Source of the DNA: Escherichia coli O127:H6 str. E2348/69
GTDB lineage: Bacteria; Pseudomonadota; Gammaproteobacteria; Enterobacterales; Enterobacteriaceae
Length of the DNA stretch: 64,000 bases
NCBI RefSeq assembly: GCF_000026545.1
Contig: NC_011601.1
Strand: one strand, 5' to 3'
Within the stretch, counting starts at the first letter, position 1. Every line of letters starts with the position of its first letter. A program made the position numbers. Positions 27,581 through 30,500 of the stretch are shown one piece after another.

Positions 27581-30500
27581 TCAATATGACAGGTCACCGT
27601 CTGGTTGATTAGTTCGGTCTTTTCTTCATCGAACGCGGTCCAGCCGGTACGTAACAGAATAGTTTCTTTGCCAAGACGAAACGCCAGAATCTCACCAATC
27701 AACGCATGGGTATGAAGGATCATGCGGGTATCGCTAGCGTCGCAGCCGGTCCAGGCGGCAATCAGGCGTGTAAGGTGACTGTGTAGCGGACTAATCACCT
27801 GTTCGTGCACCAGGTGGTAGGCTGCCGTGGGAGAGAGCTGCTCACGGGAGATAAATTTGCTGAGGTTGACGGTGTCATCCTGGGTGAGCAGCTTAATCAT
27901 GTTTCTGCAGGCGCGAAGGATCAGTTCACGGATGGCTGCCCGATCCGGCTGTGGTTGTGCGAACAAACGTTCGGCTTCTTCGGCGTGTGGACGGAACTGC
28001 TCGCCAATAAAATCAGCAATCCACTGGGCGCAGGCGAGGTACAAATCTTCTTTCGAACCGAAGTAGTAGGTGATGGCTGCGATATTCTGCCCGGCCTGGG
28101 CGGCTATCTCGCGGGTGGTGGCGTTCATTCCATATTCACCAAACTGTGCCAGTGCCGCAGCAATCAGCTGTTTTTTCGCCTGTTCACCCTTGATTGTCAT
28201 GGCAGGATTATTCATCGCACAGTCCATTCTTAATCAAATGATTGATTAAGATTATGACTCCATAGGGGAGTTGTCCAGTATGGCTAAGAATTTTAGCTAC
28301 GCCAGTCACAGGGATAATTTATGCGCTGCGTCACAAAAACTGCTACACTCCGCTCCCTCATGACATTGTGGTTTTTGTCATTTTCCTTTTCAGTATCTCC
28401 CTGAAAACTACACCGGTAACGGTCGGGGCGGTTCGGAGTAGTTATGTCTTTCGATTCTTTGGGTTTAAGCCCTGATATCCTGCGCGCCGTTGCCGAGCAG
28501 GGTTACCGTGAACCCACCCCTATTCAGCAGCAGGCGATCCCTGCGGTGCTGGAAGGCCGCGACCTGATGGCCAGCGCCCAGACCGGTACCGGCAAAACAG
28601 CGGGCTTTACGCTGCCGCTGTTGCAATACCTGATCACTCGCCAGCCGCACGCCAAAGGGCGTCGTCCGGTACGCGCGCTCATTCTTACCCCGACCCGTGA
28701 ACTGGCGGCGCAGATTGGCGAAAACGTCCGTGATTACAGCAAATATCTGAACATTCGTTCGCTGGTGGTGTTTGGCGGTGTCAGCATTAACCCACAAATG
28801 ATGAAGTTGCGCGGCGGCGTTGATGTGCTGGTGGCAACGCCGGGACGTCTGCTGGACCTGGAACATCAAAATGCAGTGAAGCTGGATCAGGTTGAAATCC
28901 TCGTCCTTGATGAAGCTGACCGCATGCTCGACATGGGCTTTATCCACGATATCCGTCGCGTGTTAACAAAACTGCCAGCGAAGCGCCAGAACCTGTTGTT
29001 CTCCGCGACCTTCTCTGACGATATTAAAGCCCTGGCGGAAAAACTGTTGCACAACCCGCTGGAAATCGAAGTGGCACGCCGCAATACCGCGTCTGATCAG
29101 GTGACCCAGCACGTTCACTTTGTCGATAAGAAACGCAAACGCGAATTGCTGTCGCACATGATTGGGAAAGGGAACTGGCAGCAGGTGCTGGTGTTTACCC
29201 GTACCAAACATGGCGCTAACCATCTCGCTGAACAGCTCAATAAAGATGGCATCCGTAGTGCGGCGATCCACGGCAATAAATCGCAAGGTGCGCGTACCCG
29301 TGCGCTGGCTGATTTTAAATCCGGCGATATTCGTGTACTGGTGGCAACTGACATCGCTGCGCGCGGCCTGGATATTGAAGAGCTGCCGCACGTGGTCAAC
29401 TATGAACTGCCAAACGTACCGGAAGATTATGTCCACCGTATCGGGCGTACCGGTCGTGCGGCTGCTACCGGAGAAGCATTGTCGCTGGTGTGTGTTGATG
29501 AACACAAACTGCTGCGTGATATCGAAAAACTGCTGAAAAAAGAGATCCCGCGCATTGCGATTCCGGGGTATGAGCCGGACCCGTCAATCAAAGCCGAACC
29601 GATCCAGAACGGTCGCCAGCAACGTGGCGGCGGTCGTGGACAGGGCGGTGGTCGCGGTCAACAGCAACCACGCCGTACGGAAAGTGGTGCGAAGTCTGGT
29701 AACGCGAAGCCCGCAGAAAAACCGTCTCGTCGTCTCGGCGATGCCAAACCGGCAGGCGAACAACAACGTCGCCGCCGTCCGCGTAAACCTGCCGCTGCGC
29801 AGTAATCTTTTATGCCGGGCTATGCCCGGCATGAGACTGATGACAAACACAAAACTGCCTGATGCGCTACGCTTATCAGGCCTACGTGAACTCTGCAATA
29901 TATTGAATGTGCATGTTTTTGTAGGCCGGATAAGGCGCTCGCGCCGCATCCGGCATTTCACAACAAGCACTTGTCAGCCATTTGCGAGCGCGGCAAAAAG
30001 ATTTCTCTGTTTTAACGCCCACAAGCCACCCGATGCGTTACTTCTCCGCAGCCAATTGTCCGCGCAACGCCATTAAAAGGTACCCCAGGCGATTCTTGCC
30101 CTGACCATTACCGCCATCTCCCCAGTAAGCATCATTTTGCGTATGCTCAACCAGTTTTGCGGACGCGGTTGCCAGCAAGAGTGTACGCAGTTCTGCATGT
30201 TGTTCGAATTTAGCGCGAAGCGCTTTACGCATCATCCTGCTGGTTATTGCGAGCCGCTTTCCAGAAACAGAAAAACCATTACCCCTGAAAACCGAAAAAT
30301 GCCACAATATTGGCTGTTTATACAGTATTTCAGGTTTTCTCATGGCATTAACCGCCGCGCTTAAAGCGCAAATTGCCGCCTGGTATAAGGCGCTTCAGGA
30401 ACAGATCCCCGACTTTATTCCCCGTGCGCCGCAGCGGCAGATGATTGCGGACGTCGCCAAAACGCTGGCCGGAGAAGAAGGGCGGCATCTGGCGATTGAA

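Follow-up and report, generated by a model that had tools for sequence, protein, structure and literature searches.

The two repeats that follow rhlE and ybiT in the stretch of the Escherichia coli O127:H6 str. E2348/69 chromosome analyzed here (NC_011601.1; 64,000 nucleotides, hereafter the window) are, we are highly confident, ordinary copies of BIME-1 that entered the chromosome as independent, old insertions, and the transposase TnpA_REP would have mobilized them. The name BIME-1 comes from Gilson, Bachellier and Hofnung, and the same element is called RIP (Oppenheim 1993) and RIB (Boccard and Prentki 1993). The original observation is correct and already known, the repeat family having been described in 1991-1993. 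Its significance as given is very little, since the family is known and both loci are also occupied in K-12. The K-12 RefSeq record holds no REP or RIP features and the RefSeq annotation is blank at both positions of the window, so the identification is useful for annotation.

A sequence-only reading had placed two near-identical composite REP modules of about 120 bp after these genes, some 25 kb apart, and both stretches were found there. Copy A (after rhlE) and copy B (after ybiT) lie on the + strand, 25,601 bp from start to start, each as a single unit with no tandem array. Both sites are extragenic, A between the convergent rhlE and ybiA remnant and B between the convergent ybiT and ybiV:

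28444..29805, + strand: rhlE CDS, upstream gene of copy A (453-aa ORF; RefSeq names identical DNA ATP-dependent RNA helicase RhlE)
29833-29988, + strand: copy A, whole element (edges from conservation across 66 family copies)
30038..30343, - strand: ybiA remnant, a NADAR family pseudogene with its N-terminus missing, converging on copy A (101-aa ORF)
53805..55397, + strand: ybiT CDS, upstream gene of copy B (530-aa ORF; identical DNA is annotated ABC-F ATPase YbiT)
55434-55587, + strand: copy B, whole element (edges from the same 66-copy conservation)
55597..56412, - strand: ybiV, converging on copy B (271-aa ORF and annotation of identical DNA)

The ybiA remnant is flagged incomplete by RefSeq in a strain with identical DNA (the coding length of K-12 YbiA is 483 bp), and the window is identical to B2-like strains. 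The sequence shared with K-12 stops at the right edge of copy B; beyond this edge K-12 has ybiU, which is missing in the lineage of the window.

A and B share one order of parts, namely left flank, Y REP, 9-nt variable spacer, L linker, inverted Z REP and right flank. The layout read originally (REP, spacer, inverted REP) is the same in both copies, and the element is longer than was drawn. The parts of copy A, together with the locus-specific stem-loop that adjoins it, are as follows:

29812..29832, + strand: stem-loop ATGCCGGGC-TAT-GCCCGGCAT, locus-specific, adjoining the left edge (9-bp perfect stem, 3-nt loop)
29833..29856, + strand: left flank motif GAGACTGATGACAAACACAAAACT, an outer imperfect inverted repeat, where family conservation starts
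29857..29885, + strand: Y-type REP GCCTGATGCGCTACGCTTATCAGGCCTAC, identical to a reference REP query in PMC11208160
29886..29894, + strand: variable spacer GTGAACTCT, the least conserved block of the family
29895..29922, + strand: L linker GCAATATATTGAATGTGCATGTTTTTGT (family alignment, shared 14-mer)
29921..29955, - strand: inverted Z-type REP, GTAGGCCGGATAAGGCGCTCGCGCCGCATCCGGCA on the + strand (hairpin in the single-strand fold; partial Rfam match to naRNA4, REP)
29956..29988, + strand: right flank motif TTTCACAACAAGCACTTGTCAGCCATTTGCGAG, an outer inverted repeat aligning to the family consensus GAACAAAGCGCACTTTGTCAGCAATCTGAG, where conservation ends

The corresponding parts of copy B are these:

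55405..55435, + strand: stem-loop (T)CAGTAGCCCTGA-TATGG-TCAGGGCTACTG(A), locus-specific, adjoining the left edge (13-bp stem, 5-nt loop)
55434..55457, + strand: left flank motif GAAACTGATGACAAACGCAAGATT (family alignment, shared 13-mer)
55458..55486, + strand: Y-type REP GCCTGGTGCGCTACGCTTATCAGGCCTGG, its tail CTGG mutated from CTAC
55496..55523, + strand: L linker GCAATATATTGAATTTTCATGATTTTGT (family alignment, shared 14-mer)
55522..55556, - strand: inverted Z-type REP, GTATGCCGAATAAGGCGGTTACGCCGTATCCGGCA on the + strand (partial naRNA4 match aligning the REP stem-loop)
55557..55587, + strand: degenerate right flank motif TAATGACATGCACTTTCTCAATAAACTGAAT (consensus identity about 63%, counted by hand)

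By its published definition, BIME-1 is a single unit with one y and one z1 REP in inverse orientation on either side of a long L linker, which is well conserved and in many cases contains an IHF site (PMC3333891; PMC2817692). In both window copies a Y REP (GCCTGATG...) and an inverted Z REP (GCCGGATG...) turn their GTAG/CTAC ends toward the linker, and the REP sequences agree with reference queries for REPs given in PMC11208160; the Z REP is putatively of subtype Z1 rather than Z2, going by its association with the L linker. The fit to this layout, together with the recurrence of the same module genome-wide, bears out the proposal that these are not independent REPs but a single composite module of the RIP type. 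With published BIME-1 the copies further share a single unit at the 3' ends of transcription units, presence or absence of the whole element between strains, and about 140 to 155 bp of conserved sequence including outer motifs. Nothing essential differs: the boundaries here span 154 bp, against a quoted size of about 140 bp (PMC1187871). They are sharp in the conservation profile of 66 family copies, and the conserved unit of about 154 bp, from GAGACTGATG to CAATCTGAG, replaces the earlier estimate of about 120 bp. By hand alignment, the left consensus GAGACTGATGACAAAC and the reverse complement of the right end CAGATTGCTGACAAAG match at 12 of 16 positions. Copy B is a somewhat decayed member, with 81% identity to the consensus, CTGG instead of CTAC at its Y tail and a degenerate right flank.

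The linker carries a predicted IHF-type site. On the minus strand of copy A, ATTCAATATATTG (29896-29908) agrees with the IHF consensus WATCAANNNNTTR at 12 of 13 positions, and copy B has the same 12/13 site at 55497-55509, also on the minus strand; neither linker contains an exact consensus. According to the literature, IHF binds and bends linker DNA of this family, and the accounts in PMC2817692 and PMC3333891 credit the binding to Boccard and Prentki (1993) and Oppenheim (1993).

An explanation in which selection maintains the elements at these sites as small-RNA genes or as regulatory RNA modules of 3' UTRs, with repetition as a secondary feature, is very improbable. Such a role would agree with the retention of copy A across Escherichia species, with the naRNA4 matches on the REP arms and with reports of REPs as 3'-UTR regulators (bioRxiv 10.64898/2026.03.23.713779), as well as with the similarity of the linker region to Rfam ES036/CssrF. 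That match covers 29878-29920 on the minus strand of copy A at 35.2 bits, under the gathering score of 37.6; the match in copy B is weak (21.8 bits), and in fact every Rfam match falls under its gathering score. Moreover, no promoter-like site was found at A or B, and the alleles in which the whole element is present or absent favor a mobile origin. Minimum-energy single-strand folds give separate REP hairpins in both copies (z = -3.3 for A, and an ordinary z = -1.4 for B), and a single long hairpin spanning the element was set aside on this prediction. An RNA function is in any case compatible with BIME-1 identity rather than an alternative to it.

BIME-1 identity leaves the relation between the two copies to be considered. 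The alignment of A and B is collinear and ungapped over 52 nt at 90% identity (29832-29883 against 55433-55484) and over 62 nt at 85% identity (29895-29956 against 55496-55557), on the same strand and 25.6 kb apart, as would be expected if a recent local segmental duplication or gene conversion had copied one locus onto the other. However, over the full 154-bp element the two are only 75% identical, about the family median of 76.6%, so "near-identical" overstates their likeness. By blocks, identity is 80 to 90% in the REPs and 89% in the linker, 55% in the right flank and 11% in the 9-nt variable spacer, and the sequences beyond the element do not align. Copy B ranks 42nd of 65 among the relatives of copy A, and both copies resemble other members of the family more closely than they resemble each other. 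Those nearest to copy A are its own orthologues, with 98% identity for the one in E. albertii and 93.5% for that of K-12. Both loci are occupied in K-12, and that of copy A also in E. albertii and other Escherichia. Local copying is therefore very improbable, and the view of A and B as a special pair, or as copies of one another, was rejected; the element was inserted independently at the two loci, in both cases long ago.

The likeness extends outside the palindromes. The 14-mer GCAATATATTGAAT in the linker occurs exactly twice in the window (0.05 expected at one mismatch or fewer; none of 100 shuffles reached two), as does the 13-mer ACTGATGACAAAC in the left flank (0.07 expected). These exact matches outside the REPs, with a linker 89% identical, establish that the similarity is not confined to generic REP palindromes, in line with the extended similarity first noticed. 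The chance that two independent clusters of generic REP palindromes merely fell in the same order is negligible: the REP blocks are indeed the best conserved (80 to 90%) and REPs are abundant, with another cluster at 34809-34933, but linker and left flank are shared far beyond chance and recur in about 70 copies elsewhere, while that cluster has neither.

A megablast search with copy A finds matches in 5,425 of 5,426 complete E. coli genomes, the median genome having at least 24 matching places; these place counts are lower bounds, 1,657 records having 40 or more matching pieces. The further copies that the first reading suggested searching for thus exist, and the module recurs across genomes with the same linker and flank motifs. 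A search with the linker pattern brought up about 70 more copies from Escherichia and Pseudocitrobacter, every one of them with this architecture, and the family is also present in E. albertii, E. whittamii, two further Escherichia species and Pseudocitrobacter. The 28-nt linker has a mean identity of 93% to the family consensus.

Mobility, which had been proposed for the module, has support for the family as a whole. Clean pairs of empty and occupied alleles were found at yigI-rarD, cmoB-torZ and metE-ysgA, and they differ in size by 165 to 174 bp, the length of the element plus one hairpin; at cmoB-torZ, E. coli has three alleles, one empty and two with the element inserted in opposite directions (forward and reverse). 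Of 40 copies, 28 have a hairpin directly at the left edge, and of 43 copies, 18 have one at the right edge; the rate in controls is about 5%. In 13 of 33 complete copies, and in the three empty-versus-occupied comparisons, a locus-specific terminator-like hairpin of 13 to 26 bp stands on both sides. This duplication looks like a structure-defined target-site duplication. A tentative explanation, which we consider possible but on balance doubtful, is that BIME-1 inserts at terminator-like stem-loops with both strands cut at the feet of the hairpin, so that the whole local hairpin (13 to 26 bp) is duplicated on either side.

At A and B themselves, the flank comparison found no flanking direct repeat and a hairpin on the left only, so these two loci bear no direct insertion scar. 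The stem-loop to the left of copy A is still present in strain 980-2, which is without the element. The K-12 counterpart of the copy B stem-loop is CCGTCACCCCGA-TACTG-TCGGGGTGACGG, its stem preserved via four two-sided changes. We rejected the left hairpins as canonical intrinsic terminators: in a simple scan neither locus gave a terminator, the T run being absent beside the element, and at copy A no T run follows the hairpin. The idea that copies without flanking hairpin duplication are older found no support (consensus identity 0.921 versus 0.922; Mann-Whitney p = 0.69).

The literature searched, with the founding BIME papers of the 1990s outside its reach, makes no mention of hairpin or terminator duplication at BIME or REPIN insertion sites. 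If unreported, whole-hairpin duplication would matter more than the original finding. It limits the ways in which REP/BIME elements can insert, and it would account for their position behind genes. If true, it would be a duplication of variable length defined by structure, unlike the fixed short duplications of DDE transposases or the scar-free insertion of the IS200/IS605 type, and would give a testable handle on how REPs and BIMEs move and why they lie at the 3' ends of genes.

As to the machinery, BIME-1 is a non-coding, non-autonomous repeat of Escherichia, about 154 bp long, that the REP-associated Y1 transposase TnpA_REP (RAYT) may mobilize in trans on single-stranded DNA; both the enzyme and the strand chemistry are our proposal. 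Insertion would take place beside a target that can form a hairpin. In vitro, TnpA_REP binds REPs and cuts single-stranded BIMEs at C|T sites (PMC3333891); its published activity is in vitro cleavage and strand transfer rather than transposition. The gene tnpA_REP (yafM), between yafL and fhiA and outside the window, has been precisely excised in 7 surveyed strains, all of the B2 clade (PMC3333891). Known Y1 transposases of the IS200/IS605 type make no target duplication, which is a poor fit with the hairpin duplications of the family. Literature on function describes REP palindromes as sites used by gyrase and DNA polymerase I and by insertion sequences that target REPs, and REP stem-loops in 3' UTR RNA as affecting mRNA decay and termination.

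Among related systems, REPINs (Bertels and Rainey; RAYT/TnpA_REP) share with BIME-1 the two inverted REPs around a spacer, the many diverged and dispersed copies, the vertical persistence and the presence in every E. coli genome; BIME-1 differs in its long, highly conserved spacer, its extra outer inverted repeats and predicted single-strand folds that form separate REP hairpins instead of one long hairpin. Bacterial MITEs, such as the Correia element, which also has an IHF site, are likewise short, do not code for protein, end in inverted repeats and contain an IHF-type site, and flanking direct repeats accompany many copies of the BIME-1 family too. In BIME-1, however, the flanking repeat is a whole local hairpin of 13 to 26 bp found at about 40% of complete copies, window copies A and B are without it, and we know of no related DDE transposase. 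BIME-2 and atypical BIMEs have the same Y REP and are extragenic as well. In BIME-2 the Z REPs are of subtype Z2, the linkers are of the short S type and the units form tandem arrays; the protein bound is gyrase, not IHF (PMC3333891). The third REP cluster of the window (34809-34933), which has no linker and lacks the linker and left-flank motifs of A and B, is of that kind. A candidate third degenerate copy at 50170-50205 (a linker match with two mismatches plus a REP-tail match) was rejected, lying inside a 527-aa ORF without REP structure.

The elements mark strain-variable places in this chromosome region. At the rhlE copy, islands have been inserted after rhlE in some strains, and an exact IS621 target, ATCAGGCCTAC, lies within the Y REP (29875-29885). 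The change from CTAC to CTGG means that the Y tail of copy B is no longer an exact IS621 target. An IS621 insertion in the ybiT copy was seen among strains, together with a breakpoint of ybiU presence and absence at the edge of this copy. Other variants include a REP-to-REP inversion and an element collapsed to a single REP.

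Downstream of rhlE and of ybiT lie two repeat elements, copy A and copy B respectively, and the window sequence bears out both this placing by the sequence-only reading and the upstream genes it named. Both copies are on the plus strand, and their starts are 25,601 bp apart. The features concerned are as follows.

28444-29805, rhlE, upstream of copy A
29812-29832, left hairpin of copy A
29833-29988, plus strand, full element of copy A
30038-30343, minus strand, ybiA remnant, downstream and converging on copy A
53805-55397, ybiT, upstream of copy B
55405-55435, left hairpin of copy B
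55434-55587, plus strand, full element of copy B
55597-56412, minus strand, ybiV, downstream and converging on copy B

The RefSeq records carry no annotation at either element position, and ybiA in this lineage is a pseudogene without its N-terminus. Aligning A with B gave two ungapped blocks, 29832-29883 against 55433-55484 (52 nt, 90% identity) and 29895-29956 against 55496-55557 (62 nt, 85% identity). Within the 64 kb of the window there are exactly two occurrences of the linker 14-mer GCAATATATTGAAT (at up to one mismatch, 0.05 matches are expected and none of 100 shuffles attains two), and likewise exactly two of the left-flank 13-mer ACTGATGACAAAC (0.07 expected). Because these exact matches lie outside the REP palindromes, the similarity is not confined to the palindromes and reaches beyond them, as had been proposed.

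An alignment of 66 copies revealed a sharp onset of conservation at (T)GAGACTGATGACAAAC and a drop after GTCAGCAATCTGAG. The consensus spans 154 bp and reads GAGACTGATGACAAACGCAAAATT / GCCTGATGCGCTACGCTTATCAGGCCTAC / 9 variable nt / GCAATATATTGAATTTGCATGATTTTGT / AGGCCGGATAAGGCGTTCACGCCGCATCCGGCATG / AACAAAGCGCACTTTGTCAGCAATCTGAG, so the element is about 35 bp longer than the 120 bp originally assigned to it. Its outer motifs form an imperfect inverted repeat, complementary at 12 of 16 positions, and the order of the parts is identical in all retrieved copies. BIME-1 is defined as a y REP paired with a z1 REP in the opposite orientation (Ton-Hoang et al. 2012, PMC3333891; likewise Nunvar et al. 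2010, PMC2817692, citing Boccard and Prentki 1993 for IHF binding), with a size of about 140 bp (Chiapello et al. 2005, PMC1187871). Both copies show all testable defining features except the Z1 versus Z2 subtype, since Z1 is assignable only by association with the L linker. The earlier label of REP-IHF-REP (RIP) is therefore correct, and A and B are members of the already known family BIME-1/RIP/RIB. A third REP cluster, at 34809-34933 between hcxB and ybiJ, contains Y and Z REPs; the L linker and the outer motifs are both missing from it, which rules it out as a BIME-1.

The linker of BIME-1 is described as bound by IHF (PMC2817692, PMC3333891), and in the window copies an IHF-like site is predicted from the sequence. 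Read on the minus strand, the linker sequence is ATTCAATATATTG, of which 12 of 13 positions agree with the IHF consensus WATCAANNNNTTR; no exact copy of the consensus is present in the linker. Rfam returned sub-threshold matches to naRNA4 on the REP arms and to ES036 (CssrF sRNA) on the linker, the latter at 29878-29920 on the minus strand with 35.2 bits against a gathering score of 37.6. As this match covers the Y tail, spacer and linker of copy A, the ES036 family would seem to represent the BIME-1 linker.

Calling the two copies near-identical was an overstatement, because they are 75.3% identical over the 154-bp element and the median of all family pairs is 76.6%. B ranks 42nd of 65 among the relatives of A, and A 28th of 65 among those of B. 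With an identity near the family median and such poor mutual ranks, no evidence points to a local duplication linking them. The nearest relatives of A are its own orthologues in E. albertii (98% identity), K-12 (93.5%) and Escherichia sp. MOD1-EC7003 (91%), so the insertion at rhlE is old and has been passed on vertically. By megablast, the copy A sequence is 100% identical in Nissle 1917, ATCC 11775 and similar strains, and in K-12 MG1655 both loci are occupied by the element. Copy B is more decayed than A, with 81% identity to the consensus, a Y tail of CTGG for CTAC and a degenerate right flank. A and B are ordinary, independent family members.

The edges of the element are associated with hairpins. 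On the left (Y-side), 28 of 40 copies have a perfect stem of 5 bp or more that ends no further than 5 nt from the element edge; on the right, such a stem begins no further than 5 nt from the edge in 18 of 43. Control rates at positions shifted 50-140 nt outward are 5% and 4%, respectively. Among the 33 copies with both outer motifs, 13 have a locus-specific direct repeat common to both flanks (score above the 99th percentile of mismatched-flank controls). In every case this repeat abuts both element edges, and it comprises a whole local terminator-like stem-loop of 13-26 bp. Hairpin duplication was found at comparison loci L016, L023, L027, L033, L035, L037, L046 (7791), L054, L056, L057, L062 and L065 from other genomes, and the empty sites L074, L075 and L078 have one hairpin each. 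At yigI-rarD, E. coli BL21 is empty with one hairpin, and E. whittamii and MOD1-EC7003 are occupied with CAGGTAAACTGCT duplicated. At cmoB-torZ, the empty site of E. coli AF23 reads AAATTT[AGCGCCCGTTTCCGGGCGCT]TTTT, and the occupied sites of E. coli 24A16CRGN010, E. whittamii and MOD1 have the 20-bp hairpin on both sides; at metE-ysgA, E. coli is empty and E. albertii carries the element with a 19-bp hairpin duplicated. At these three loci the alleles differ in size by 165, 174 and 171 bp, the length of the 154-bp element and one hairpin together. Comparison of empty with occupied sites at all three confirms that duplication and insertion go together.

K-12-like strains carry a reversed BIME-1 at the same cmoB-torZ hairpin, without the right flank motif and with a single hairpin copy abutting the Y-side end. 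E. coli therefore has three alleles at one hairpin: empty, forward with the 20-bp duplication, and reverse (L075, L076, L077). Age was considered as the reason for the presence or absence of the duplication; both classes are equally near the consensus, so that age does not explain the difference. If an extruded hairpin or cruciform were cut in a staggered manner at both its feet, the local hairpin would be duplicated whatever its length, and this is a possible mechanism. The duplication sits awkwardly with the known IS200/IS605 Y1 transposases, which insert scar-free according to the literature. As for target-site features at the window copies themselves, the left hairpin is present at both and a right-hand copy at neither. 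In the 12-bp stem of the ybiT stem-loop (55405-55435), four compensatory changes, each affecting both sides, separate this lineage from K-12 (L002 3066-3094); the arms are CAGTAGCCCTGA/TCAGGGCTACTG in this lineage versus CCGTCACCCCGA/TCGGGGTGACGG. The searchable literature, which does not cover the founding BIME papers, holds no mention of hairpin duplication at insertion sites; we do not claim newness, and the pattern is one point worth comparing with older literature.

Copy A was matched by megablast in 5,425 of 5,426 complete E. coli genomes, at a median of 24 places per genome and with at least 40 pieces in 1,657 records, place counts being minimum values once 40 pieces per record are attained. 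When one genome per species was scanned for the linker pattern GCAATATATTGAATNNNCANNNNTTTGTA, 64 loci were found, including 11 in E. albertii, 9 in E. whittamii, 8 each in Escherichia sp. E1V33 (10 matches) and MOD1-EC7003 (13 matches), 3 in each of two E. coli lineage representatives, 8 each in Pseudocitrobacter faecalis and an uncultured Pseudocitrobacter MAG, and 4 in P. vendiensis. The full element with the exact linker pattern is present in these three Pseudocitrobacter genomes (L022-L037, L062-L065). Single loci on contigs of about 260 bp in Desulfosporosinus and Methylobacterium assemblies (L021, L061) are probably enterobacterial contamination. The scan demanded the exact 22-base pattern and missed the E. 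coli type strain, which carries copy A, so its counts and taxonomic range are lower bounds; the absence of this exact pattern from Salmonella, Klebsiella and Citrobacter likewise makes no statement on variants. MOD1-EC7003 also has tandem Y-L-Z1 units with a 115-bp period and without outer flank motifs (L073 378-981; L072 186-214), which conflicts with the description of BIME-1 as found in single units only.

For the propagation of the family, TnpA_REP/RAYT is the best current candidate and would mobilise the element in trans, on single-stranded DNA. In vitro, TnpA_REP binds a REP with its GTAG and cuts the linker and the inverted REP at C|T sites (PMC3333891). Seven strains, every one from the B2 clade, are reported to have lost tnpA_REP by precise excision (PMC3333891), and fewer REPINs are reported in RAYT-less E. 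coli. Strains identical to the window have 15-21 places per genome, versus at least 40 in K-12-like strains (megablast), which is consistent with that report, the tnpA_REP locus lying outside the window. According to the literature, REPs also provide sites for gyrase and for Pol I, are targeted by insertion sequences specific to REPs and, in 3' UTRs, influence decay and termination.

The region after rhlE (29806-30343) is a variable spot among strains. O157:H7 has the espX2 island and lacks the element, ETEC1701 has other (hypothetical) genes and IS1, and strain 980-2 keeps the hairpin, with a RelE/StbE toxin-antitoxin pair replacing the element and ybiA. In 8 of 5,426 genomes (e.g., O103 RM8385 and 93_0495), ybiA-dinG-ybiB-hcxB is inverted between the Y REP of copy A (29857-29885) and an inverted Y REP at 34856-34890. 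Both junction REPs (L006 5990-6030, 11270-11300) have CAGTATCTAC in place of CAGGCCTAC; TATCT is the terminus of the IS621 right end, and the junction 14-mer is absent from 77 other loci compared. In strain E50, IS621 lies in the Y REP at the ybiT locus (L008 2780-4070) at GGCCT|ACGCAG, the natural IS621 target ATCAGGCCTAC (PMC11208160). This 11-mer is exact in copy A (29875-29885) and is not found in copy B, with its CTGG for CTAC. A deletion between the ATCAGGC repeats in the Y arm and the Z arm has collapsed the ybiT element of strain 7386Nal (L009 2738-2815) to one hybrid REP and has left both outer motifs in place. Most strains, K-12 among them, have ybiU after the element, between ybiT and ybiV; the window's lineage lacks ybiU, and its sequence in common with K-12 stops at the right edge of copy B (55557-55600) and starts again within the 3' end of ybiV. 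In 1,052 of 5,425 genomes, coverage of the window's ybiT-to-ybiV query is 80% or more.
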